Shown: piece after piece, positions 924 to 60,785 of the stretch
Numbering within the stretch: position 1 is the first letter of the stretch
Layout of the letters: every line of letters begins with the position of its first letter
Assembly: GCA_964417675.1 (NCBI GenBank)
Contig: CAYQJL010000018.1
Location: forward strand, 16,760-80,759
Length of the DNA stretch: 64,000 nucleotides
Reading direction: 5' to 3'
From: an uncultured bacterium
Lineage (GTDB): Bacteria > Eisenbacteria > RBG-16-71-46 > CAIMUX01 > WJJG01
Notes under the pieces: model-generated
Seen by the model: only the letters and a program-made list of their open reading frames with translations
Told to the model about the DNA's origin: nothing
Database searches by the model: none
Position numbers and translations under genes: made by a program

Positions 924-1149
924 GGGCCACGGTTAAAGGACCTGCGATTTTCTACTCCCTGACCCGGACCCGGGTCAAGGGCTTTCTACCGCCCGGCCGG
1001 GGCCGAGCCAAGACCGCGCCTGAACGAAGACTCCGGGCCGGGACGCGAAGCCGCAGGTAGACGGCGAAACCGGGCCCGCCCCATCGCCGGACCAACCCTT
1101 GACACCCGCATGGTGGAAGCGTAGCGTGTGGATCAGACGAACTCTTCCG

Positions 1150-1325
1150 GTTCCGGCCCTCAGGGGCTGGTGAAAAGGGAAAACGGTCCAATGCCGTTGC
1201 GGGCCCGCCGCTGTAGTCGGGGACAGGGATCGCATTCATAGCCACTGCCGGTGTTTCGCCGGTGGGAAGGCGCGATCAACTGGATGATCCGAGAGCCAGA
1301 AGACCTGCCGGAAGTTGATGGAGTG
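1150..1325 (+). promoter_or_regulatory. cobalamin (AdoCbl) riboswitch in the 5' leader of the TonB-dependent receptor
   Basis: Conserved riboswitch elements are present: GGTGAAAAGGGAA, CCCGCCGCTGTAG, GCCACTGCC...GGTGGGAAGGC, and a B12 box AGAAGACCTGCCGG. Order and spacing match the E. coli btuB leader and the RF00174 consensus. Confidence 0.75.
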
Positions 1326-1442
1326 TCCTGTCAGGCTCTAGGTCGGCCGGCCCCATGCCCTTCGACCTCAGCCATGGGCCGAAGGGTGTTGTAGGAACCC
1401 CCTCCCGGTGCCTGCCCGGACCAGGCTTGCGCATTCAGGGTA

Positions 1443-3890
1443 GTGTGCAGCCACACCTTCCTCTCCGCGAGGCTGGAGATGGTTGGATCACTCTTCTGGA
1501 TCGCCGGTCTACTCCTGGCGTCGGCAACGCCGGGAGTCCCTCCCTCGGACAGCACTTCCTGCGCGACGGCAGGTGAGCGCCCGGCGGTCTCCTGCGCACC
1601 GGTCGACACGACCTCCTCGACACCGGTCGACACGACCTCCTCGGCACCGGTCGGCACGACCTCCTCGGCACCGGTCGACACGACCTCCTCGACACCGGTA
1701 GGCACGACCTCCTCGACACCGGTAGGCACGCCCGCACCGGTACCGGTCGGCACGGCCTCCTCGGCACCGGTCGGCACGCCCGCGCCGGTACCGGTCGAAG
1801 TCCCCGTCCTCGTGCGCGCACAGCTCGACACCACCATCGTCACCGGCCGGCGCCCCAAGCCCGCGGCCCGGCTCCACCGCGAAAGCAGCTTCGCGAGTCG
1901 GATCGAGCTGCCGGCGGATCGAGCGGCCGGCGAAACGATCGCCGATGTCATCGAGCGCACGGTGGGTGTCATGGTGCAACGCTATGGGGGACCGGGCGCC
2001 ATGGCGACGGTGTCGATTCGGGGAGCCGACCCGGGGGATGTGGAGGTGTACCTGGATCGCGTCCCGTTGCGCACTGCCGCGCGCGGCATGGTCGATCTGA
2101 GCAGCCTGGACATGGCATCCCTCGCGGCCCTGGAGATCTACCGCAGCGCCCCCCCGGATGGGATGGGGGGCGAATTCGCGGGGTCCGCTCTTCGTTTGAT
2201 CACCCGTCAGGGGGGGCCGGCCAGCCTGGCCTGGCGCAGCGACGGGGGATCCCTGGACACCTGGCGCCACGAGGCCGTTCTGGGGGGTTCCTACCGCCAA
2301 GGCCGCTTTCTGTTGACCGGATCCCGCTTCTCCACCCGCGGCAACTTCACCTACCACGACGACAACGGAACCCCCGCCAATCCGGACGACGACCGCTGGA
2401 AGGAGTGGGCCAATGGGGATGTCCTGCGCGAGAGCCTGCTCGCGCGCTGGACGCAGGCAGCCGGCCGGCTGGGAACGGTGGACTTCGCCTCGCAGTTCTG
2501 GAGGGCCGACCAGGGTTTGCCGGGCAGTGACCGCCAACCTACCGCTCGCAGCCGCCTGCGCAGCCGTGGCGGACTGCACCGCATCGAGACCGAGACCCAC
2601 CGGCGCCTGCTCCCCGTGCGGTTGACGCTGCAGGCCTTCCTCCATCAGGAGGAGCTTCACTACCGCGATCCCGAACGTGAGCTGGCCGTCCCGGGCGCCT
2701 CCGCCACGCGGGCGGATCAGGATCTGGACCGCTGGGGGTACGGCCTGCACCTGCACAAGACGCTGCGCGGCGCCCATCACCGCCCCTGGGGATACCACGC
2801 CCTGGAACTGACCGCGAACCGCCGGCACGAGCGGCTGCGCAATGCACCCTTGCCGGGACGGTCCGAGGAGGACACGCGCGAACGCGCCTCCACGGCATTC
2901 TCCGCCGGCGATCGCATCGAGTGGGCCGCGGGGCGCTTCCACGCGGACATCTTCTACCGCTGGAATCACACATGCGACAACTACACGGGCGCCAATCCCT
3001 ACCAGCCGTTCGCATCCCAGCCCGAAAGGACGACCCGCGTTCACGGCGCCCATCTCGGGTTGCGCGCCAGTGCGGGCGGCGGCCACACGTTCAGAGCAAA
3101 CTACGCCGACCAGGCGCGCTTCCCCACCTTCGTGGAGCTGTTCGGTTACGCGGGCACCATCCGCAGCAACCCGCAGCTGCGACCCGAGACCGGCTGGCGG
3201 GCCGACACCGGCTGGCAATGGGACTGGCCGGTGAGACCGTGGGGCATGCGCCTGCGAACCGAGGCGGCCGGCTATGTCAGCCGACGCGAGGAGATGATCG
3301 TCCTGATCCGGATCTCCGAGCGTGAGACCAAACCGGTCAACCTCGACCGCGCCAGCCTGCGGGGGCTCGAGCTGTCCTGGCAGTGCGCCACATTGCCGGG
3401 GTTGCGTGGCAAGGCCCCACTCGCGTCGATCGAGCGTGCGATCGGTGAGCTGTTCGGAGCCGCCGCGGCCCGCAGCCCTGTCGCCCAGAGGACCGGGGAA
3501 GAGCGGTCGGCCACCCTGTTCGGCCATCTGCACTGGCAACAGACGCGCGACGAGGGCGCCGCCAGGCTCTATCAGGGCAAGGCATTGACCTACCACCCGC
3601 CGTGGCAGCTTCTGCTGGGACTGACATGGCCGCAGGGACACTGGGACGTGCGCTACATCGCGCAGTTCCGCGACGAAGCCTACTGGTCACGATCCAATCT
3701 GCCCGAGTACCGGACTGGCGCGACCTGGCTGCACGAGCTGCAACTCGCCTGGCGGCCCGCGCCCCAGGGTGGGCTGTCGATCCGTATCGAGAACCTGTTT
3801 GGCACCCGCAGCCAGGATGTGCGCGGCTATCCGCTGCCGGGACGGACCTGGTTCGCCGGCATCGAAATCGACCCACTGCGCACTCAGTGA
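1443..3890 (+). CDS. btuB: TonB-dependent outer-membrane receptor, BtuB-like (cobalamin/corrinoid uptake inferred from the riboswitch)
   Basis: Signal peptide (MVGSLFWIAGLLLASA; likely true start near 1479). Plug-domain motifs ETIADVIERTVGV...VSIRGADPGDVEVYLDRVPL. Long beta-barrel region and a C-terminal aromatic end. Confidence 0.88.
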   Translation: MCSHTFLSARLEMVGSLFWIAGLLLASATPGVPPSDSTSCATAGERPAVSCAPVDTTSSTPVDTTSSAPVGTTSSAPVDTTSSTPVGTTSSTPVGTPAPVPVGTASSAPVGTPAPVPVEVPVLVRAQLDTTIVTGRRPKPAARLHRESSFASRIELPADRAAGETIADVIERTVGVMVQRYGGPGAMATVSIRGADPGDVEVYLDRVPLRTAARGMVDLSSLDMASLAALEIYRSAPPDGMGGEFAGSALRLITRQGGPASLAWRSDGGSLDTWRHEAVLGGSYRQGRFLLTGSRFSTRGNFTYHDDNGTPANPDDDRWKEWANGDVLRESLLARWTQAAGRLGTVDFASQFWRADQGLPGSDRQPTARSRLRSRGGLHRIETETHRRLLPVRLTLQAFLHQEELHYRDPERELAVPGASATRADQDLDRWGYGLHLHKTLRGAHHRPWGYHALELTANRRHERLRNAPLPGRSEEDTRERASTAFSAGDRIEWAAGRFHADIFYRWNHTCDNYTGANPYQPFASQPERTTRVHGAHLGLRASAGGGHTFRANYADQARFPTFVELFGYAGTIRSNPQLRPETGWRADTGWQWDWPVRPWGMRLRTEAAGYVSRREEMIVLIRISERETKPVNLDRASLRGLELSWQCATLPGLRGKAPLASIERAIGELFGAAAARSPVAQRTGEERSATLFGHLHWQQTRDEGAARLYQGKALTYHPPWQLLLGLTWPQGHWDVRYIAQFRDEAYWSRSNLPEYRTGATWLHELQLAWRPAPQGGLSIRIENLFGTRSQDVRGYPLPGRTWFAGIEIDPLRTQ
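1603..1795 (+). repeat. in-frame 24-bp tandem repeat (about 8 copies) encoding P-V-D/G-T-T-S-S-T/A linker in the receptor N-terminus
   Basis: Direct repeats ccggtcgacacgacctcctcgaca with single-base variants. Translates to PVDTTSST/PVGTTSSA units between the signal peptide and the plug. Confidence 0.9.
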
Positions 3891-3933
3891 TCCTGTGGAT
3901 GGGTCCCGAAGCGCCCAAGAAGGAGACCGAGTC

Positions 3934-5430
3934 ATGCCCCGCCACACCCTGAGTCCCACGGCCCGTGAACTCCGCCGGACCGGCCGAATCGCTCTGCTCT
4001 TGATCCTCTGTCTGACTCTGCTACAGGCGGGTTCGGGCCAGGAGGCCTGGGCCGGCGAGCGCCCGCGCGATGAGGACTATGGGGATGTCCTGTTCATCCT
4101 CACCAATGACTACGAGTTCGCCGCCGGCAGCTTCTCGACCGTCGAGATGGGTCCGCCCTGGGTGCACGAAGACAACATCGCCCCGGTCTGCGCCGACGCA
4201 CTCGCCCGGGAGTACGGCGGACTGGTCTATGTCGTGGGCCGCGCGGGGTGCGACCACATCCACGTTCTGGATCCGGAGGACGGATTCGCCACCCTGCTCC
4301 AGTTCTCGACCGGCAGCGGATCGAATCCCCAGGACATCTGCTTCGTCTCACCGACCCGCGCCTTCGTGACCCGCTATGATCGCACCGAGCTGTGGGAGGT
4401 CGATCCCTCGACCGGCCAGCAGACCGATGCGATCGATCTGGCGCCCCTGGCGGATGCGGACGGCCTGCCCGAGATGATGGGCATGGCCATCTCCGGCGAC
4501 CGGCTCTATGTGGCGCTGCAGCGGCTGGATCGCGATTTCTACTGGATCCCGGTGGCTCCCTCCTACCTCGCCGTCATCGACCTGCACACCAACGAGCTCC
4601 TCGACATGGATCCGAATCAGACCGGCGTGCAGGGCATCCCTCTGGCGGCAACCAATCCTTCCATGCTCCTGGTAACCGATCCACTGAGCGGACACATCCT
4701 GATCGGTGAGACCGGAAGCTACGGCGTGCTCGACGGCGGCATCGAACGTTTCGATCCGAGCTGTGAGCAGAGTCTGGGCTTCGTCGTCACCGAGGAGGAC
4801 CTCGGTGGAGAACTGAACATGTGGATGAGCGCCGACATGCAGCTGGGGCTGGCAATCACCCTCTCGAGCAGCTGGTCCACCGAGGTGGTGGCCTTTGATA
4901 TGGAAAGCGGATCGCTCCTGGGGGTCGTCGCCAGCAGCAGCGAGTATGCCTATACCCATCTCGCGGTCGATCCATCCTACCGAGAGATCTATGTCGCCGA
5001 TGCGAGCTATGTGGAGCCCGGGCTCCGCGTCTTCGACATGGTCACCTTCGACCCCCTCACGGAACGGATCCCGGTAGGGCTCTATCCCCGCTGGCTGCTG
5101 CCGCTGCACGGGCCCTCGTCGGGAGTGACACCCGTGGAACCGGACTCCCGGGATCCTGCCGTGGGGCTCAACGTCTGGCCCCAGCCGGCCGCGGGCGGGA
5201 TTCGGTTGGCCATCGACCACCGCGGCGACGGAGCGCTGTCGGTCCAGATCCTGGACATATCCGGTCGGGAGATCTTCCGGTTCCCGGAAGCGATCGGGGC
5301 GGCCGGGCAGTTTCAGCTCGCGTGGGACGGCCGGATCACAGACGGCGGGCGGGCGGCGGCGGGAGTCTATCTGCTGCGCATCGCCGGTGAGGATGGCTCC
5401 TTGAGCAGACGCATCCAGTTCATGCGCTGA
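3934..5430 (+). CDS. secreted beta-propeller-like protein with T9SS/FlgD-Ig-like C-terminal sorting domain; putative surface corrinoid-capture partner (BtuG-like role)
   Basis: GGAG RBS; signal peptide RIALLLILCLTLLQAGSG. Repeated sheet-like segments. C-terminus AAAGVYLLRIAGEDGSLSRRIQFMR resembles a T9SS CTD. Immediately downstream of the btuB-like gene. Confidence 0.65.
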   Translation: MPRHTLSPTARELRRTGRIALLLILCLTLLQAGSGQEAWAGERPRDEDYGDVLFILTNDYEFAAGSFSTVEMGPPWVHEDNIAPVCADALAREYGGLVYVVGRAGCDHIHVLDPEDGFATLLQFSTGSGSNPQDICFVSPTRAFVTRYDRTELWEVDPSTGQQTDAIDLAPLADADGLPEMMGMAISGDRLYVALQRLDRDFYWIPVAPSYLAVIDLHTNELLDMDPNQTGVQGIPLAATNPSMLLVTDPLSGHILIGETGSYGVLDGGIERFDPSCEQSLGFVVTEEDLGGELNMWMSADMQLGLAITLSSSWSTEVVAFDMESGSLLGVVASSSEYAYTHLAVDPSYREIYVADASYVEPGLRVFDMVTFDPLTERIPVGLYPRWLLPLHGPSSGVTPVEPDSRDPAVGLNVWPQPAAGGIRLAIDHRGDGALSVQILDISGREIFRFPEAIGAAGQFQLAWDGRITDGGRAAAGVYLLRIAGEDGSLSRRIQFMR

Positions 5431-5732
5431 TCGACCCCGCGGGCGGGCCTCTTTCGACCATCGCCACCCGCGGCCCCTGTCCGCCAGCGCCTGGTACGGG
5501 ACTCCCCAGGGTGTGGGATCGTGCCGGCCGCCGAACGGATCTTGACACGGCCGCCTCATGTACTACGGTGACCGGGGAGCGTCCCATCCGGTCCCGGAGG
5601 GCTATCTTCTTCAATAGCCTAAAGAAAGCCAGGCTGGTAGCGGATGAATTAGGGCGTAGGAGTGCAGAGGCTGACCCAGCATCCCGAGTACCGCGAATCT
5701 TGACCCGGAACCGATTGAGCATCGGAGCAGTC

Positions 5733-7505
5733 ATGCAGCTTGGCCGAACGCACAGGGCCCCCATGCGGTTTCCGATCCACTTCACCGCGCCGGATCGGTC
5801 CAAGACCTACATCGGGGAGACGATGGACGTCTCGTCCAACGGGTTTTCCGTCCAGGTGAAGACGGACGATCCGTTGCCGACGATCATTCTGGCCGGCATC
5901 CTGCCCAGCGAGATCGCGGGGGATGCCATTCTGTGCAAGGCCCGCGTCGTGTGGCAGGGCGGACTGGCCGGAGGCACCAAGCGGGCCAGCTACAAGATCA
6001 CCTCGATCGCACGCCAGAGCCAGGATCGGCTCGATGCGCTGATCGCCGACTCGCTGGATCAGATGCTCAGCGAGCTGAAGGACCTGCCGCTGCTGCACAA
6101 CGCGGATCCGGTTCATCTCGAGATGCTCTTGCAACTCGCGCGGCTGCGGGAGATCACGGCCGAGGGCTCGTTGTACGAAGCCAGCTCGCTGCAGGGAACC
6201 GGGTTGTTCATCCTGCTCAGCGGGCAGGTCTCGAACCCGAACGACGCGCAGGGCACACTCTATGGACCCGGCAGCGTGATCGGGCAGTGGGCCGACCCGG
6301 CATCCAGTGCGGTCCCGGGCCAGGCCACCGCCCGCTGCGCGGTCCGGGCCCTGCATCTGCCCCATGCCTTGACCCAGGAGCTTCAGCAGAACACCCCGGC
6401 CCTGGCCATGGATCTGCAGCGCGCGCTCGGCAAACCGGGAGAGCCGCTCCCCGAGCAGGGAGACGGCCGGCGGCGGCGCATGCGGCTCAACGTCATCAAA
6501 GATCTGCAGGAGATTCCCACCCTTCCGGCGATCTTCAATTCGGTCATGGATTGCATCGAGAACCCGGAGGCGACACCCCGGGAGCTCTCGCAGATCATTC
6601 GCCAGGATCAAGCGTTGACCGCCAAAATCCTGCGGACGGTCAATTCCGCCCTCTATGGGTTCGCGCGCAAGATCAACTCCGTGCATGAGGCGGTCGTCCT
6701 GCTGGGCATGGGACAGACCGCCAACCTGGCCATCACGGCCATGCTGCTCAACACGCTGGTCGATACCCGCAACCCCAAGCAACGACCGGAGGCCTTCTGG
6801 GAACACTCGCTGGGATGCGCCTACTTCGCGACGGTGATCGGCGAGCGGCTGCGAGCCAAACCACCGAGCGAGCAGGCCTGGGCCGTCGCCACCTCCCACC
6901 GCCGCGCCGGCCGGGATGGGGCGGCCGCGGATCAGACCCCACCCGCGCTGCGCACCCTGAATGCCCTGGGCAGCACGGAGGAATGGGATCGGGACCAGTC
7001 GATTCCCCTGGAGCGGCTTTTCACCTTCGCGATCCTGCACGACATCGGCCTGGCCATTCTCTACCTGAAGTTTCCCGATCACTACGCCATGGTTCAGGAT
7101 GCCATCAAGGAGTTCGGCACGCTCTACCGCTCCGAGCTCGAGATGCTCGACGTCGATCACTGCCAGCTGGGCTATCGCATCGCCCAGGCCTGGCGGCTGC
7201 CGGAACCCATTCCGACCATCATCGCCGAGCATCATCTTCCGCAGTTGTGGTGCGCGGAGGAAGAGGATCAGGCGCGGGTTCTCGCTCTCCTGCGGGAGGA
7301 CCCGGTCGTGACGCTCATCTCGCTGGCCGACATCATGGCCCGACGCAGCATGATCGGCGTGGTCATGGACCGGACGCCTCCCTCGATCTCGCCGTTGCTG
7401 CTCGATGCCCTGGGGCTGACCGCAGAGGAAGCCCAGGATATCCTGGAGCAAGGACCGGCCATCAAGGACAAGTCCGAAGCGCTTTTTCGGGGCATGACCG
7501 CCTGA
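5733..7505 (+). CDS. PilZ - cyclic-nucleotide-binding-like - HDOD three-domain signalling protein
   Basis: PilZ motifs RAPMRF...DVSSNGFSV. Central cNMP-binding-like beta-roll (LPLLHNADPVHLEMLL...GTGLFILLSGQV). C-terminal HDOD (LQEIPTLPAIFNSVMDCIENP...ALYGFARKINSVHEAVVLLG). Confidence 0.8.
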   Translation: MQLGRTHRAPMRFPIHFTAPDRSKTYIGETMDVSSNGFSVQVKTDDPLPTIILAGILPSEIAGDAILCKARVVWQGGLAGGTKRASYKITSIARQSQDRLDALIADSLDQMLSELKDLPLLHNADPVHLEMLLQLARLREITAEGSLYEASSLQGTGLFILLSGQVSNPNDAQGTLYGPGSVIGQWADPASSAVPGQATARCAVRALHLPHALTQELQQNTPALAMDLQRALGKPGEPLPEQGDGRRRRMRLNVIKDLQEIPTLPAIFNSVMDCIENPEATPRELSQIIRQDQALTAKILRTVNSALYGFARKINSVHEAVVLLGMGQTANLAITAMLLNTLVDTRNPKQRPEAFWEHSLGCAYFATVIGERLRAKPPSEQAWAVATSHRRAGRDGAAADQTPPALRTLNALGSTEEWDRDQSIPLERLFTFAILHDIGLAILYLKFPDHYAMVQDAIKEFGTLYRSELEMLDVDHCQLGYRIAQAWRLPEPIPTIIAEHHLPQLWCAEEEDQARVLALLREDPVVTLISLADIMARRSMIGVVMDRTPPSISPLLLDALGLTAEEAQDILEQGPAIKDKSEALFRGMTA

Positions 7506-16631: not shown

Positions 16632-16822
16632 CACCCCGGCCGGTGCTCCCCCCAGGCGACGCTCCCCCCAGGCGACGCTTCCCCCAGGCGACGCTTCCCC
16701 CGGGCGACGCTAGCACCCCGGGCGACGCTAGCACCCCGGCCGGTGCTCCCCCCGGGCGGCGCTTGCCCCGGGCGACGCTAGCACCCCAGGCGGCGCTTCC
16801 CCCGGGCGTTCGGGCGGCAGGG
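16632..16822. repeat. intergenic degenerate tandem repeat array (about 9-10 copies of a 16-17-bp GGCGACGCTTCCCCCA unit) between convergent wzx and lepB
   Basis: Direct repeats ggcgacgct(t/a)(c/g)cccc(a/g) and gacgctagcacccc. No unique spacers. Confidence 0.85.
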
Positions 16823-52571: not shown

Positions 52572-55325
52572 TCAACGAACGATCAGGAGCCTCCCCTGGT
52601 GGGCGCCCTCCCCACCCTGGATACGGTAGAGATAGACGCCGCCGGTCACCGGTTGGCCCTGTTCATCGCAGCCATCCCAATGGAGGCCCTGCACGCCCGC
52701 GGGCAGGAGGCGCTCCAGACCGCGAATCTGGCGGCCCTGGAGGTCGAAGATGCTCGCGCGTACCTGGCCACCCTGGCCCAGTTCGAAGCGCAGGGTGGTC
52801 GCGCCAGGTCCCGGATTGGGTGCGGCGCCCAGGAGGCGCAGGCCGCCGGCTAGCCGCGGCTCGCCGATACCCTGACTGCCCTCGACCGTGAAACTGGCAG
52901 CCGGCATGCAGGGGCCGGCCTCCTCGCCATCGTCGGCGTAGGCCCGCCAGTAGTAGGTGCCATCCGCCAGGGGCGAGACCACCGTCCAGGCCGTCTCGGA
53001 GGCACCCTCGGGCACGCCGCTGACGCTGCTTACCAGGTTCGTGAGCAGGACATCCGCGAACAGCTGGAAGCCGTAGGTGAGCTCATCGCCGGGGTCCGGA
53101 TCGGTGGCGTTGCTGACCACCAGGGTGGGCCGGGCCGTGGGCACCGTTTCACCGTCGGCCGGGCTGATCAGCGCCGGCGCATCCGGAGGCAGGTTGGCCG
53201 AACTCTGGCTCGCGATGGTCACATCGTCGACGTACCATCCCTCGCCACCGGAGTTGCCATCGGACCCGAAGCGGAAGCGGAACTGCACGTCCCCGGTGAC
53301 GCCCTGCAAAGTCACCGTCCCCTGCGTCCAGCCGAACGACCCCGAATAGACCGGCGTATGCTCTGCAAAGGGACCCGGTTGGCTCGAAGAACGAATCGTG
53401 TGGGTGTAGCCCTCATCGGGGGTGATCTGCACCCAGGGCGCGCCATCGACGGTCATCTCAAGAATCCCGCCGTCGTAGGCTCGGCCGGTCCAGTAGCTGC
53501 TGGCCTCGGCATCCATCCAGTGCCAGAAGGAAAGCTGGGTCGCGGCACCGATCGGAATGACCGGAGTCTCGAGCACGCCGTCGGCCAGCGGGGCGTAGTC
53601 TCCGCTGCCCGTGCTTCCAAACTTCCAGCTCGTGGATCCCCCCGGGGTGTGGTTGCGCGCCGTGCTCATGTGCCACTGGTCCACATAGCCGGCGGTCTCA
53701 ACATGGTGGACCCAGTCTCCCTGGCCGGACTCCATGTCATCGGCGAACACCACCGGGAGATCTCCCACCATGTATTCGCGCTCGAACGCGACCTCGAATC
53801 CGTCGGCCGACACCAGCAGGGTCAGCGACATGCGATGGCCGGCCGGGCAATCCGCGGACACCGTGAAGCTGACCGGGTGGGCGCTGTTGTCCGCCTCTCC
53901 CCGGGCCGGCACCGTCCCGAGGGGGGCCTGGGCGACATTGAGCTGCACGTACGGATCGTTCGACAGCAGGGTCACGATCGCATTGCTCGCATCCTGCTCG
54001 ATGGCATCATTGCGTACGCTCAGGACGAGTTCGCAGGTCTCGCCCGGATCGGGCTTCTCATCCATGTTGCCACCGCTCAGCGTCAGATCGAGCAGCGTCA
54101 AGTAGACACCCGCGGCCTTCATCAGATAGAGGTTCTTGGGAATGTTCTCAGCCACCAGCCCCGGGATTTCGGCGTCGGCCGGCCAGAAGCCGGAGCCGCT
54201 GACCTCGGTGCAGAAGCTCCACATCTTCGGCTTGGTGGTCCGCTCGCCATAGGCCCAGTCGGTGGTCGTCCCCGAACAGCTATATCCGATTGTCTCGCCG
54301 GCTTGCCCGACATCGTAGCTGTAGCCGGTGAATGCGCTCAAGGCATTGCCGACTTCGCGGAAGAGGGCATCGTCCTCGGTGTGCGCACTCGTCCAGGTCC
54401 AGGGGATGAGGATCGCTCCGGCAACGCTATGGTAGGTATCGTGGGTGACAAACTCGCGGCCATTCACAAAATTGATGAATGCTTCTACGCAAGGCTCCGA
54501 AGCCGGCGCGGGCCCGAGGTAGACATCGCTGCAGGGATCGTAGCTGATGCCGCCATGATCCCACATGTAGGGGTAATTCCGATTGGGATCGACACCGTAG
54601 CAGCTGCTCCCGGCATTGTCCCGGCGGTTCTTCCGCCACATGCCGCCGCCGCCCGGATAGGTCTGCTCGTTGTACAGATAGCCGTCCGGATTCACCACGG
54701 GTATGAAGTAGGTCTGGCGGTTATCGACCAGGAAGGTCACCTCGGGATCGGTTCCGTAGTTCTCGCACAGGAAACGGATCGTCTCGATCAAGATGTTGAC
54801 GCCGATCGGTTCGCGGGCGTGATGGAGCGCATCGAAGAGCACCTCCGGCTCGTCCGGCTCATCGATGTCAACATTGTCCGAGAGCTTGACGGCCCAGATG
54901 GCATTGCCCTCATGGGTCGTCCCGATCGAAAACTTCTCACTGAGAATCTCGGGGTACAGGCTCCGGAACTCATCCAGGTAGACGATCATCTCGCTGTAGG
55001 AATAGTAGTCGCCCAGATTGCGATCCTGCGTCCGCTGGGCGGCGTAATGCTCCTCCATGTCGGGAATCTGGATCTCGACGACGAAACCCAGAGCCTCGAG
55101 CTGGAGGATCTGCTCGTCGTGGCTGACCAGAATCAGTTCCTCGCCGGGAACATACTTCATGATGTCCAGATCGGGGATCTGGCGCAGGGTTTGCAGATCG
55201 ACGGCATCGACCCACTGCAGTCTGACCTGCACCTTGGGGTAGCTGCCGGTGTAGGCATCGGCGAGGTCCCCCATCCCACACACAAACGCAAATGCAACCG
55301 CTAGAAGAACCAGCCGCTGGTGCAT
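52572..55325 (-). CDS. secreted M14 zinc carboxypeptidase with extra beta-sandwich domains and T9SS/FlgD-Ig-like C-terminal domain
   Basis: Signal peptide. M14 motifs (LHHAREPIGVNIL, NPDGY, HSVAGAILIPW). C-terminus GGVYLYRIQGGEGAHQGRLLIVR. Confidence 0.88.
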   Translation of the reverse strand: MHQRLVLLAVAFAFVCGMGDLADAYTGSYPKVQVRLQWVDAVDLQTLRQIPDLDIMKYVPGEELILVSHDEQILQLEALGFVVEIQIPDMEEHYAAQRTQDRNLGDYYSYSEMIVYLDEFRSLYPEILSEKFSIGTTHEGNAIWAVKLSDNVDIDEPDEPEVLFDALHHAREPIGVNILIETIRFLCENYGTDPEVTFLVDNRQTYFIPVVNPDGYLYNEQTYPGGGGMWRKNRRDNAGSSCYGVDPNRNYPYMWDHGGISYDPCSDVYLGPAPASEPCVEAFINFVNGREFVTHDTYHSVAGAILIPWTWTSAHTEDDALFREVGNALSAFTGYSYDVGQAGETIGYSCSGTTTDWAYGERTTKPKMWSFCTEVSGSGFWPADAEIPGLVAENIPKNLYLMKAAGVYLTLLDLTLSGGNMDEKPDPGETCELVLSVRNDAIEQDASNAIVTLLSNDPYVQLNVAQAPLGTVPARGEADNSAHPVSFTVSADCPAGHRMSLTLLVSADGFEVAFEREYMVGDLPVVFADDMESGQGDWVHHVETAGYVDQWHMSTARNHTPGGSTSWKFGSTGSGDYAPLADGVLETPVIPIGAATQLSFWHWMDAEASSYWTGRAYDGGILEMTVDGAPWVQITPDEGYTHTIRSSSQPGPFAEHTPVYSGSFGWTQGTVTLQGVTGDVQFRFRFGSDGNSGGEGWYVDDVTIASQSSANLPPDAPALISPADGETVPTARPTLVVSNATDPDPGDELTYGFQLFADVLLTNLVSSVSGVPEGASETAWTVVSPLADGTYYWRAYADDGEEAGPCMPAASFTVEGSQGIGEPRLAGGLRLLGAAPNPGPGATTLRFELGQGGQVRASIFDLQGRQIRGLERLLPAGVQGLHWDGCDEQGQPVTGGVYLYRIQGGEGAHQGRLLIVR

Positions 55326-57837: not shown

Positions 57838-60531
57838 TTACTCCACGACCACGACGCGACGGGTCATCTCTTGTCCGGCGGCTTTGGCGCGGACGAAGTA
57901 GATACCTGCAGAGGCGACGCGGCCACGGTCATCGCGGCCATCCCAAGGCAACGCATGGGATCCCGCGGCCAGGGTTCCCCGAGCCAGCCTGCGAATCCTC
58001 CGGCCGCTGGCATCGAACAACTCGACCGTCGCATCGGCGGCCGACGGCAAGGTGAGCTGCAGCAGCGTCGCGCCCGTGGTCAGGGAGGGAATCGGGCGGC
58101 TCAGGTGCAGGCGCCCCGCCGCAATCACCTCCGGAACATCCTGGGATCCGCTCACAAGATACATGACGGCATTCTCGATCAGCTGCCGAGCGAGCTGGCC
58201 GTCGGTTAACGCATCGTAGTCAAAGGCGAAGAAGACGATCTGCCCCTCGCTGCGACCGGCAGCCTCATAGACCAGGATGCCCACGTCATCGGGGTAGCTG
58301 CTGGTGCCGAAGACCACGGTGGCGTCGCCGGTGGGAATCGCCGCGTCCTGGTCTCCGAAGTAATCATAGGTCAGACCCAACGTGCTGGGCAGCGCATTGG
58401 GGGTCGTGGCCAGCGGATGCTGGCTCTGTGAGCCGCGCAGCACCAGATCGCCGCCATGGTCCGTGCGATAGCTCGATACGTGCAGCAGCTCGGAGGCGAT
58501 CTGGGGATAGCCTGGATTGACCAGCGCATCGTAGGCCATCTCCCCACCCTCCATGATGAGGCGTCCCTGCGCGGCCGCATGCGCCAGCAAGGCCTCCCGG
58601 CGCCCTTCCATACGCAGGGGGTTCTTGTACGATCCGGCGCTCCAGATGACCACGTCATACTCGTCCCACAGTTCGGGCTGGGTGGTCACGATCGTCTCGC
58701 GCGTCACGCGAAACGCCAGCGCCGTGAGATCCGCGACCAGCACATCCGAGGGGTTCTCATCCGAGATGACCAGGATGTCGGCGCGCGCCGGCGGCAAAGC
58801 GAAGTCGAGCGACAGGTTGCCGCCGATCGTGCGGGTTTCGGTGACCGGAACGTGCCCCGCCGCGCCAGCCACCAGGTCGTAGGTTCCGGACGGAACCTCG
58901 ATCTCATACTCGGCCGTGACGGCGTCGGCGGCCACCTTCTGGAAGAGCTCGCCGGTATCCGCGCGGTAGACCGCCACCGTGGCGTCACCCAGGGGGGTTC
59001 CGGTTCCGGCCTGCGCCACGCTACCCGAGACCATGTACCAGGAACCCGCCCGCTGCAGCTGGACATCATGCCGGGTCGTGACGCCCGCGATCACACTGAT
59101 CGGACCCGAATTGTACGGCTGATACCCGAACGACTCGACCTCGAGCGTATAGGTGCCCGGTTCGAGCATCCGGTGGTAGAAGCCGTCGGCGGCATCGTTG
59201 TAGATCGGCTTGCCGATCTCGGTGACATCGATCGTGGCCGGCACGGGGGTTCCGAGGCCGGCGTCGGTCACCTGCCCCTGGACTCCGTTGCGGGCCTGCT
59301 CGAGCAGCCAGATCATCGACTCGCGATTGTTCTCCCAGAAGGTGGGCAGCTGGGAGGACGACGGCCACTTCACATTGCTGACCTCGATGCAGAAATGCAG
59401 CTCATTGCGCCAGTTGTAGGCCCAGTCCTGGAAACCGCCGTGAATGACGTACCATTCCCAACCAATCGTCACGCCATGCGTGAAGGTACCGCTGTTCCAC
59501 ATCGGCGGGTTGCGGAAGGAGTAGCCCAAGGCCAGGTTGTGGATCTGGTCATGGTCGGGGGTGTACTGGCCGTAGAAGCAGTCCCAGGGGTAGTTCACCA
59601 CCAGGGCCCCGCCGTGATAGTTCACGCCGATCGTGAAGTTGTGACCGTATTGCCAGAGCATCATCTGCTGTACTTCCGTGGGCCGCCCCGCGGGATCGTC
59701 GTTGGGATCCTCGAGCGGGTCCGGGAAGCTCCGGTTCAGATCAAACCCGCTCGCGTTGTAGCGCGAACCGGCCGCGTTGCCGTCCGGATTGTGCAGCGGG
59801 CAGAACCAGATCTCGAGGTCATCGACCAGCGCGGTCAGATCCGGGTCGACGCCATAGTTCTCCACCAGAAGACGGATCAGATAGACACACATCTCCATTC
59901 CCACGACCTCGTCACCGTGAATCGTGGCCGTGTACTTGAAGGCCGGCTCCGGCTCATCCTGCGTAACATTGTCGGAGATCTTCAGCATCCAGATCTCGCG
60001 ACCCTGTTCCGACTGCCCGATGGAGGTGAGCATGGCGATGTGGGGATAGTCATTGGCGATCTGCTGGAGCTCGGCGCCGAGGGATTCGTGGGTGTGATAG
60101 TCCTCACGCCCCGGTATGCGCAATCCGGCCGCCACCTCCGCTTCCCACTGGAGAAAGGCGCGGCGGGCCTGGTTGGGAATCGCCTGGGCCTGATAGCCGG
60201 CGCCGCGGAGGTCATCCAAGGTGGCGTCATCGACGTAGGCCGTGACGATCTGTCCGTGCACCCGGTCAATGTCAAGATCCCACGCATCGAGCGCCGAGAG
60301 ATGGTAGGCACTGGATGCGACGATCTCGATGGGAAACCGGCCGGTGAAGGGACAGCGATCCTCCCTGGCGGGCAACGGGCCGAGGGCGGCATCCACGTCG
60401 GAGAGCAGGCCGGGCAGGGCGCCCGCGGCGCCCGTCGCGCCCGTCGCGCCCAGGAGAGAGAGCAGGAGCAGACCTGCCACACAGAGGGTCCTCGGATGAT
60501 GTCCGGTCCGCCAGCCTGTCCGTCTTCGCAT
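57838..60531 (-). CDS. secreted M14 zinc carboxypeptidase with CarbopepD_reg-like and additional domains and T9SS/FlgD-Ig-like C-terminal domain
   Basis: AGGAGGG RBS at the internal Met. Signal peptide CVAGLLLLSLLGATGA. M14 motifs (ATIHGDEVVG, NPDGN, VNYHGGALVVNYPW). C-terminus AGIYFVRAKAAGQEMTRRVVVVE. Confidence 0.88.
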   Translation of the reverse strand: MRRRTGWRTGHHPRTLCVAGLLLLSLLGATGATGAAGALPGLLSDVDAALGPLPAREDRCPFTGRFPIEIVASSAYHLSALDAWDLDIDRVHGQIVTAYVDDATLDDLRGAGYQAQAIPNQARRAFLQWEAEVAAGLRIPGREDYHTHESLGAELQQIANDYPHIAMLTSIGQSEQGREIWMLKISDNVTQDEPEPAFKYTATIHGDEVVGMEMCVYLIRLLVENYGVDPDLTALVDDLEIWFCPLHNPDGNAAGSRYNASGFDLNRSFPDPLEDPNDDPAGRPTEVQQMMLWQYGHNFTIGVNYHGGALVVNYPWDCFYGQYTPDHDQIHNLALGYSFRNPPMWNSGTFTHGVTIGWEWYVIHGGFQDWAYNWRNELHFCIEVSNVKWPSSSQLPTFWENNRESMIWLLEQARNGVQGQVTDAGLGTPVPATIDVTEIGKPIYNDAADGFYHRMLEPGTYTLEVESFGYQPYNSGPISVIAGVTTRHDVQLQRAGSWYMVSGSVAQAGTGTPLGDATVAVYRADTGELFQKVAADAVTAEYEIEVPSGTYDLVAGAAGHVPVTETRTIGGNLSLDFALPPARADILVISDENPSDVLVADLTALAFRVTRETIVTTQPELWDEYDVVIWSAGSYKNPLRMEGRREALLAHAAAQGRLIMEGGEMAYDALVNPGYPQIASELLHVSSYRTDHGGDLVLRGSQSQHPLATTPNALPSTLGLTYDYFGDQDAAIPTGDATVVFGTSSYPDDVGILVYEAAGRSEGQIVFFAFDYDALTDGQLARQLIENAVMYLVSGSQDVPEVIAAGRLHLSRPIPSLTTGATLLQLTLPSAADATVELFDASGRRIRRLARGTLAAGSHALPWDGRDDRGRVASAGIYFVRAKAAGQEMTRRVVVVE

Positions 60532-60720
60532 GGGAATCCCTCCTGATTCGGGCGCCCGCATGCACGCGCGCCCTCCCGCAAACTCGTGGCACCCTCCGGC
60601 CCGCCCGGCAGGCTCGCCCGACACTGTGTACGATTGTATCACCTCCTCGCCCTCGCAAGCCACCGCCTTGGAGCTAAGGGGAGGCGCAACTCGTGACGAT
60701 GACCTTAAACGGTCGGCAGG

Positions 60721-60785
60721 ATGCCCCTTCATAGATGCAGTGGTTACCAGCGGCCCGTCACAGATGCAGTGGTTACCCACGGCCC
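60721..60785. repeat. two tandem copies of a ~30-bp unit upstream of the GAF gene
   Basis: agatgcagtggttacc(a/c)(g/a)cggcccgtcaca x2. Confidence 0.8.

Follow-up and report, generated by a model that had tools for sequence, protein, structure and literature searches.

A 64,000-nucleotide stretch of DNA from an uncultured bacterium of the Eisenbacteria (contig CAYQJL010000018.1 of assembly GCA_964417675.1, forward-strand positions 16,760 to 80,759), which we call the window, carries near its beginning a cobalamin riboswitch, a gene for a BtuB-like TonB-dependent receptor, and a gene for a secreted β-propeller protein homologous to BtuG, the surface protein that partners BtuB in corrinoid capture in Bacteroidota. 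We consider it likely that these elements form a two-gene operon for scavenging corrinoids (vitamin B12) that is switched off by its own product. The notion, as far as regulation is concerned, comes from knowledge of the riboswitch family: plentiful cellular cobalamin would bind the riboswitch in the 5' leader and expression would drop, while scarcity would allow both genes to be made. The product of the first gene would be a BtuB-type TonB-dependent outer-membrane transporter. BtuG owes its place on the cell surface to an N-terminal lipid anchor. The propeller protein, by contrast, is predicted to pass the inner membrane via Sec and then the outer membrane by means of its C-terminal domain, and on the outside it would remain attached to the surface or be set free. 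There, the propeller would capture corrinoids and supply the neighboring transporter with them, in the way that BtuG serves BtuB. An earlier reading of the DNA from its letters alone (the sequence-only reading) had suggested such a variant of the BtuBG system. What it observed is confirmed, and its interpretation is supported and extended, by the riboswitch, the BtuB-like and BtuG-like homologies, the fold of the propeller, the conserved order of the three elements, and the almost mutually exclusive occurrence of C-terminal domain and lipobox; ligand binding, surface location, complex formation, and the direction of regulation are predictions. The homologies indicate that a capture system of this kind is not restricted to Bacteroidota.

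Riboswitch, receptor, and propeller in conserved order

The Rfam covariance model of the cobalamin riboswitch, RF00174, matches positions 1131-1326 of the plus strand over its full length (model positions 1-189 of 189), with a score of 115.3 bits (gathering score 31.5; E 3.4e-28). This is the sole Rfam match across the 64 kb window. The conserved riboswitch elements quoted in the sequence-only reading are all found in the sequence, including the B12 box AGAAGACCTGCCGG at 1298-1311, and the Infernal search for RF00174 gave a strong positive; the aptamer has its start at 1131 rather than at the 1150 given there. Its 3' end lies 152 nt before the ATG at 1479 of the BtuB-like receptor gene, on the same strand. 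A putative sigma-70-like promoter, TTGACA-17 nt-TAGCGT (1099-1127, plus strand), ends just 5' of the aptamer. It was read by eye and falls under the threshold of the promoter scan, which called none. The leader between aptamer and gene (1327-1478, plus strand), where the expression platform would lie, contains a GC-rich stable hairpin at approximately 1355-1389 and a candidate GAGG Shine-Dalgarno sequence 6 nt 5' of ATG 1479. The hairpin is common to the minimum-energy and centroid folds, but the region as a whole folds no better than shuffled sequence (z-score -0.36). The expression platform is ambiguous, the candidates being the 1355-1389 hairpin and a Shine-Dalgarno site that is possibly sequestered. 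No convincing intrinsic terminator is present in the leader or 3' of the propeller gene.

The receptor gene (1479-3890, plus strand) encodes 803 amino acids from ATG 1479. The maximal open reading frame (ORF) begins at GTG 1443 and specifies 815 amino acids; the ATG is the more likely start, and 803 residues agrees with the Joint Genome Institute (JGI) call on the identical contig. The protein begins with a signal peptide, followed by a Thr/Ser/Pro-rich repeat, a TonB-box-like DTTIVTG, and a Plug domain that Pfam detects at 38.8 bits. The candidate TonB box is encoded at 1827-1847 of the plus strand (residues 129-135 of the 815-residue ORF), and we take it to resemble the TonB box of E. coli BtuB. 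The consensus of the receptor family begins xDTxxVxAxRP. Between the signal peptide and the TonB box, a 24-nt tandem repeat in 8.7 copies (1589-1797, plus strand) codes for PVDTTSS/PVGTTSS units, an unusual periplasmic low-complexity extension of the receptor. The DTT within this repeat fits the Bacteroidota O-glycosylation motif D-[ST]-[AILVMT].

Among solved structures, the closest relatives of the receptor are vitamin B12 transporters. Searched against the PDB as a single sequence, it matches E. coli BtuB best, at E 2e-8. A family profile built from ten orthologues from related loci ranks Bacteroides thetaiotaomicron BtuB1 first (8blw_A, E 7e-44), followed by E. coli BtuB (4e-38), an unnamed receptor (9gbc), BtuB3 (8p97_A, 1e-32), and BtuB2 (8bmx_C, 1e-31). 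CirA (3e-28) and YncD rank below the BtuB chains. Profile positions 15-643 align to solved transporters, and the PF00593 barrel is matched in the receptor homologues L087, L089, L092, and L095. At the level of sequence, the label "BtuB-like" is justified, and "BtuB orthologue" would overreach. It is only the riboswitch control that suggests corrinoids as the transported substrate.

The propeller gene runs from ATG 3934 to 5430 on the plus strand and encodes 498 amino acids. It begins 43 bp 3' of the receptor stop codon (a gap of 44 bp had been given earlier, with the start at 3935), and an AAGGAG Shine-Dalgarno sequence (3920-3925, plus strand) lies 8 nt 5' of its ATG. The AlphaFold2 model of the protein, which used a 58-sequence alignment, has a mean predicted local distance difference test score (pLDDT) of 90.1 and a predicted template modeling score of 0.85. 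Residues 1-40 (3934-4053, plus strand) form a Sec signal peptide of the signal peptidase I type, with likely cleavage after AWA (…QEAWA / GERP) and no lipobox; the model places a helix here, at residues 12-32. After a very short linker follows the BtuG-like propeller of about seven blades (about residues 46-392; 4069-5109, plus strand; pLDDT >90), whose blades span about residues 52-391 in the model. A lower-confidence linker (residues 393-409; 5110-5160, plus strand; pLDDT 63-82) leads to the C-terminal Ig-like domain (residues 410-498 plus the stop codon; 5161-5430, plus strand), modeled as a seven-strand β-sandwich over residues 410-496 at a pLDDT of about 90. This domain is of the FlgD_ig or type IX secretion system (T9SS) type A kind. 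The Pfam match in the protein is limited to the C-terminal FlgD_ig, and the propeller body belongs to no Pfam family. The earlier description of a secreted, propeller-like protein with a T9SS/FlgD-like C-terminal domain is thus borne out by the AlphaFold2 propeller body and by the matches to FlgD_ig and TIGR04183.

The three-part gene order is a property of the family rather than of one contig. The search detected 565 homologues of the propeller protein, most of those with a source name coming from metagenome-assembled Candidatus Eisenbacteria, and a scan of one genome per species yielded at least 469 relatives. We retained 80 loci, labeled Eisenbacteria, Latescibacterota, Krumholzibacteriota, and Gemmatimonadetes, as well as a small number of soil genome bins with odd labels. 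RF00174 is present in all 11 loci tested with Rfam. All 80 loci were searched by nhmmer with 11 riboswitch sequences (from the window and ten related loci) and by tblastn with the two proteins. In 76 of the 80, the gene directly upstream on the same strand is that of a homologous receptor. Two of the four remaining loci sit at contig edges; in the other two, the riboswitch is directly 5' of the propeller gene. Among the relatives, L031 (1678-3396) and L091 (5799-7155) have the riboswitch directly 5' of the propeller gene and no receptor directly upstream. The riboswitch was found in 65 of the 80 loci. The 15 misses are all on contigs that end inside or just before the receptor, so that every one of the 65 assessable loci has the riboswitch. 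A third locus in which the riboswitch directly precedes the propeller gene is L054 (5588-11083), where the propeller with its C-terminal domain is followed by a 1154-residue receptor of another type (CarboxypepD_reg plus Plug). Given this altered order and different receptor subtype, the propeller-receptor pairing survives rearrangement. Two complete riboswitch-receptor-propeller modules (L059 and L068) occur in one Eisenbacteria bin, MFD05942.bin.1.32, an observation that recalls the multiple btuBG loci of Bacteroides.

Homology of the propeller to BtuG

The sequence-only reading had named two outcomes that would refute it, the lack of a significant RF00174 match and the lack of structural similarity between the propeller and BtuG-type propellers. 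Both checks were made, and neither outcome was obtained. Specifically, in a Foldseek search of the PDB with the AlphaFold2 model, BtuG structures (8BAI, 8BMZ, 8BMY, 3DSM, 8OKV, 8BMX_D, and 8P97_B) are the best of the propeller-only matches, at E 5e-14 to 3e-12 and target-normalized TM-scores of 0.75-0.79, with root-mean-square deviations of 3.6-4.3 Å and identities of 15-18%. XusB (target-normalized TM-score 0.63) and YncE rank lower. The overall top match is an archaeal two-domain protein consisting of a propeller and a PKD domain; it ranks first because of its two-domain architecture and superposes poorly, at a deviation of 18 Å.

Sequence profiles agree with the structural ranking. The propeller-only family profile, searched against the PDB, retrieves ten distinct BtuG sequences, nine of them at E 3e-6 to 6e-6 (best 3.4e-6) and BtuG1 (8blw_B) at 6e-3. 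Only BtuG chains score at E <0.01, and nothing else falls under E 0.4. Aligned by hhalign to 20 DUF5074 BtuG proteins, the family gives a probability of 97.1% in local mode (E 5.5e-11, 247 columns) and of 98.0% over 300 columns in global mode. The DUF5074 proteins were gathered with a near-full BtuG2-like sequence from a gut-metagenome locus, L084, in which two in-frame stops were repaired; a protein database search with a 63-residue BtuG fragment taken from the PDB alignment returned short fragments only. The BtuG2-like gene in question (L084 3677-4771, also in L085) lies on a gut-metagenome contig and has its two stops at positions occupied by Ser and Lys in related BtuG proteins; either the gene is a pseudogene or the assembly is in error there. 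The same protein fragment, P0124, is among the calls of the ENA assembly and of the Logan assembly alike, and the reading of the stops comes from the ENA locus, L084, alone.

PF16819 is present in all bona fide BtuG proteins; BtuG thus corresponds to Pfam PF16819 (DUF5074). DUF4465, the family to which the earlier reading had assigned BtuG, is the jelly-roll family of BtuJ. PF16819 is matched by one of the 58 propeller family members, weakly (E 0.0076). The profiles suggest that the propeller family is a sister family of BtuG that lies outside the present Pfam boundary. We file the window protein as a variant rather than as a BtuG member because it falls outside DUF5074 and lacks the lipoprotein signal that defines BtuG. 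By analogy, a propeller homologous to BtuG would also work like BtuG.

The predicted binding site offers a finer comparison. Published corrin-contact residues of BtuG2 (bioRxiv 10.1101/2024.02.16.580637, PMC13616437) were mapped via hhalign onto the 58-sequence family alignment, and several of the positions aligned to them are among the best conserved in the family. The equivalent of Glu55 is Asp or Glu in all 58 sequences, and Pro132 is likewise Pro in 58 of 58. Ser131, which lies in a TSPR sequence in BtuG2, corresponds to an Asn in 56 of 58, within GSNPQD, the most conserved motif of the family. Gln219 is retained in 55 of 58 members, Trp194 in 51, and Tyr335 in 44, and, in the local alignment alone, 49 of 58 have Trp or Phe at the position of Trp272. 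Roughly half of the BtuG2 contact residues listed are different in the family. The pocket predicted from this alignment looks related, not identical, to that of BtuG, and corrinoid binding is a prediction. The propeller is also strongly acidic, with a net charge of -41, compared to a mean of -33 for the family and of -14 for BtuG. The binding face of BtuG is negative as well, and electrostatic capture has been described for BtuG2 (PMC10404256). Judged from its sequence, the acidity of the window propeller matches such a mode of capture.

These results bear on a rival explanation in which the propeller is unrelated to corrinoids: it would be an enzyme, or a YncE-like protein of a generic sort that serves at the surface or in adhesion, and would merely be cotranscribed with a B12 receptor. 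Such a reading could appeal to the missing Pfam assignment, to the low identity to BtuG, and to the variety of ligands that seven-bladed propellers bind, siderophores in the case of XusB and DNA in the case of YncE. We nonetheless judge it extremely improbable. The riboswitch accompanies the family in every assessable locus, and in six of six lipoprotein-type relatives described below, and it stands directly 5' of the propeller gene itself in L031, L054, and L091. Moreover, BtuG is the sole solved structure matched by the sequence profile, and conservation is concentrated at several of the equivalents of the BtuG corrin contacts.

The C-terminal domain, the lipid anchor, and flanking genes

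The window protein combines an N-terminal Sec signal with an Ig-like β-sandwich at its extreme C-terminus. The C-terminal domain scores 30.2 bits with FlgD_ig (cutoff 27) and 24.0 bits with TIGR04183, the T9SS type A sorting model (cutoff 23). Among the 58 family members, 35 match PF18962 (Por_Secre_tail) at E<=1. A family profile of the domain matches FlgD as well as the C-terminal domains found in PorU and PorZ, two T9SS proteins. In the same window, two large M14 zinc carboxypeptidases (52575-55325 and 57841-60780, both on the minus strand) end in the same FlgD_ig-type domain, which suggests that the domain serves generally as a signal for export or anchoring in this bacterium. Family members with the C-terminal domain carry labels of FCB-group (Fibrobacteres–Chlorobi–Bacteroidetes) phyla. 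T9SS has been reported only in the FCB group, and other phyla of that group may have it; Bacteroides itself is without T9SS (PMC11285876).

The wider family reveals how the domain relates to lipid anchoring. The propeller by itself was searched exhaustively with phmmer against 1.84 billion cluster representatives (50% identity clusters). At E<=1e-3 this gave 1,959 clusters, of which 1,222 reach E<=1e-10. We surveyed anchoring in the 128 full-length sequences among the best 150 phmmer matches. An ordinary signal peptide together with the C-terminal domain is present in 46 of the 128, and a lipobox without such a domain in 52. Only one sequence has both, and 29 are otherwise. In the lipoprotein-type members, the lipobox Cys is followed by Gly/Asp/Ser/Glu-rich sequence, whereas in the window protein and the 57 relatives aligned with it the signal peptides are of the AxA type and the lipobox is absent. 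The lipoprotein-type members, too, are under the PF16819 cutoff, and those that are named come from genomes labeled Deltaproteobacteria or Spirochaetota. RF00174 lies upstream in all six lipoprotein-type members examined, and a TonB-dependent receptor is adjacent, upstream, in five of the six. One such locus, L094 (1620-7954), contains in order a riboswitch, a receptor, a propeller lipoprotein, a Peripla_BP_2 (BtuF-like) protein, an ABC ATPase (BtuD-like), and a FecCD permease (BtuC-like). One sequence labeled "Bacteroidales" (P0118) was rejected as evidence for Bacteroidota members, the label being unreliable since an identical sequence is also labeled Latescibacterota.

The almost perfect either/or pattern suggests that the C-terminal domain replaces the anchor, which would imply tethering. 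This pattern is the strongest indirect evidence, drawn from sequences, that the domain may do the job of the lipid anchor. The idea of a C-terminal sorting domain in place of a lipobox, which came from the sequence-only reading, agrees with the signal peptidase I type signal peptide, the absence of a lipobox, and the sorting-type domain of the window protein, and the near exclusivity of domain and lipobox across the family strengthens the companion idea of a lineage-specific variant.

Two further rivals concern where the protein ends up. In one, the C-terminal Ig-like domain is not a secretion signal here, and the propeller is a periplasmic corrinoid-binding protein that stands in for BtuF. 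The window operon indeed contains no BtuF or BtuCD genes (nor BtuH, BtuJ, or BtuK), neither the window ORFs scanned nor the literature searched gave T9SS machinery for Eisenbacteria, and FlgD_ig is a generic fold. However, the domain family matches the C-terminal domains of PorU and PorZ as well as TIGR04183, the same domain occupies the extreme C-terminus of typical extracellular hydrolases of the same genome, and the domain-bearing members are labeled as FCB phyla, the only group with reported T9SS (PMC11285876). In addition, L094 holds the propeller and a separate BtuF-like protein together. We regard a periplasmic role as very unlikely.

The other rival shares most of its premises with the proposed operon. 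It holds that the propeller is not a tethered lid and is released as a soluble, very high-affinity corrinoid scavenger, much like a haemophore, that redocks on the receptor. T9SS cargo can be released or surface-attached, which leaves room for such a scavenger. The N-terminal linker of the window protein is very short, and nothing in it is obviously equivalent to the N-terminal hinge formed by BtuG2 with the loops of BtuB (PMC10404256). The propeller genes of L091 and L031 have their own riboswitch with no adjacent receptor. Surface attachment of T9SS cargo has been described (PMC11285876, PMC8754138). The either/or distribution of domain and lipid anchor suggests anchor replacement, and hence tethering, and the tight pairing with a receptor at all but four of the 80 loci resembles the stable BtuBG complexes. 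Release as such a scavenger is an unlikely outcome in our view.

Several observations weigh against the proposed corrinoid-scavenging operon. On the regulatory side, folds of the leader (1327-1478) show no clear terminator or anti-Shine-Dalgarno structure that could serve as expression platform. The receptor misses the cutoffs of the NCBIfam BtuB equivalogs TIGR01779 and NF007926, with 58.6 bits against 599.7 and 41.6 against 836, respectively; only its N-terminal part is aligned in these matches. The window propeller has no match to PF16819/DUF5074, and its identity to BtuG is low, at 17-18%. Within the predicted pocket, Asn107 of BtuG2 is Asn in 39 of 58 family members and Gly in the window protein. 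Ser195 and Tyr316 correspond to variable positions, Tyr196 to Pro, Tyr239 to Ile, and Trp149 to Glu or Asp; none of these contacts is kept. The hhalign alignment is ambiguous around Trp272 and Gln93. With regard to export, the TIGR04183 score is barely above its cutoff, and that of Por_Secre_tail (PF18962), 14.5 bits against 27, is below. No T9SS machinery gene (porV, porU, sprA/sov, gldK-N) is present among the 24 window ORFs scanned, and our literature search found no paper documenting T9SS in Eisenbacteria, nor anything specific for Latescibacteria and related phyla.

We can also speculate beyond the window. BtuG-type capture could be, rather than an invention of the Bacteroidota, an old, widespread module, spanning ~2,000 clusters in several phyla with no Pfam family, in which the lipid anchor and the type IX sorting domain are interchangeable. 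The sorting-domain form would either be linked to lipopolysaccharide at its C-terminus and act as a lid, or be released as a soluble "cobalamin-ophore" that returns with B12 to its receptor. We advance this broader proposal tentatively, as a possibility that we would not expect to hold in full.

Regarding the flanking genes, no third gene is conserved: even the commonest groups of downstream genes are found in no more than 13 of 69 loci, and they have no relation to B12 (M48 peptidase, Na/sulfate symporter). A 1061-residue downstream "ORF" in related loci is a spurious high-GC reading frame. At least seven related loci encode a small secreted protein directly 3' of the propeller gene. Its parts are a signal peptide, an FN3-like domain with the motif WTAPGDDG…YDLRYS…YYFALKT.DE.GNWS, and the same C-terminal sorting domain, and it may be an accessory surface component. 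Its genes lie at L040 6877-7566, L046 3491-4483, L057 7316-8299, L059 7355-8101, L060 3694-4434 and 4438-5199, L069 7420-8184, and L077 7326-8387, and the window lacks one. In L064 (labeled Binatia), a 456-residue ORF between riboswitch and receptor (1562-2929) has a weak SGL/propeller match; it is unrelated to the BtuG-like family (hhalign 0.3%). Finally, approximately 300 bp 3' of the window propeller gene, positions 5511-7505 (JGI start 5733) encode a protein with PilZ, HDOD, and HD domains that is probably related to cyclic di-GMP signaling. The gene has its own TTGACA-like element (5542-5547) and is probably outside the operon.

Significance and comparison with known systems

The propeller proteins described here appear to form a family that is sister to BtuG, is linked with B12 riboswitches and BtuB-like transporters, and occurs in uncultured phyla of soil and sediment. 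Their recognition would provide a function-level annotation for approximately 2,000 protein clusters that currently go by "hypothetical" or by no more than "T9SS sorting domain" protein, and would extend the idea of the lid-assisted TonB-dependent transporter beyond Bacteroidota. The family also represents a natural experiment, which asks whether lipid anchors and C-terminal sorting domains can stand in for each other in placing a capture protein at the cell surface. Lastly, it has a bearing on B12 competition in environmental microbial communities.

Among known systems, E. coli btuB likewise encodes a BtuB-like receptor under riboswitch control. E. coli has no extracellular capture protein, and the window receptor is longer, with a Thr/Ser/Pro-rich repeat N-terminal to its TonB box. 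The XusB–XusA pair of Bacteroides (a xenosiderophore lipoprotein and its transporter) and the lipoprotein-capped transporters of the SusCD type share the proposed logic of the window operon, in that the gene for a surface propeller or lid adjoins the gene for the TonB-dependent transporter it feeds. XusB–XusA differs in ligand class and in regulation, and XusB is the weaker structural match, with no sequence-profile match at all.

The C-terminal domain invites comparison with type A T9SS cargo, represented by Porphyromonas gingivalis RgpB, PorU, and PorZ and by the models TIGR04183 and PF18962. The N-terminal Sec signal and the terminal seven-strand Ig-like sandwich of such cargo are also found in the window protein, and the domain consensus of its family has a PNPA, a GVYF stretch, and a basic C-terminal end, as in type A cargo. 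In contrast to type A cargo, the best model for the window domain is FlgD_ig rather than Por_Secre_tail, the TIGR04183 match is marginal, and the organism lies outside Bacteroidota.

BtuG has been described as exclusive to Bacteroidetes (Wexler 2018, PMC6143338), and a 2026 review treats relatives of BtuH and BtuJ outside Bacteroidota, not relatives of BtuG (PMC13616437). The BtuB–BtuG system of B. thetaiotaomicron (BtuG2 is BT1954; PDB 8BAI, 8BMZ, 8BMX) has the same layout as the window operon, namely, a riboswitch, then a BtuB-type transporter, then a propeller of about seven blades. The window propeller resembles BtuG in fold, in profile homology, in acidity, and in the conservation of the equivalents of Glu55, Ser131, Trp194, Gln219, and Tyr335. 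Unlike BtuG, it has neither lipobox nor lipoprotein export signal and carries instead a signal-peptidase-I type peptide and an Ig-like C-terminal domain of ~90 residues, and, whereas BtuG belongs to Bacteroidota, the window family is found in Eisenbacteria, Latescibacterota, and Krumholzibacteriota.

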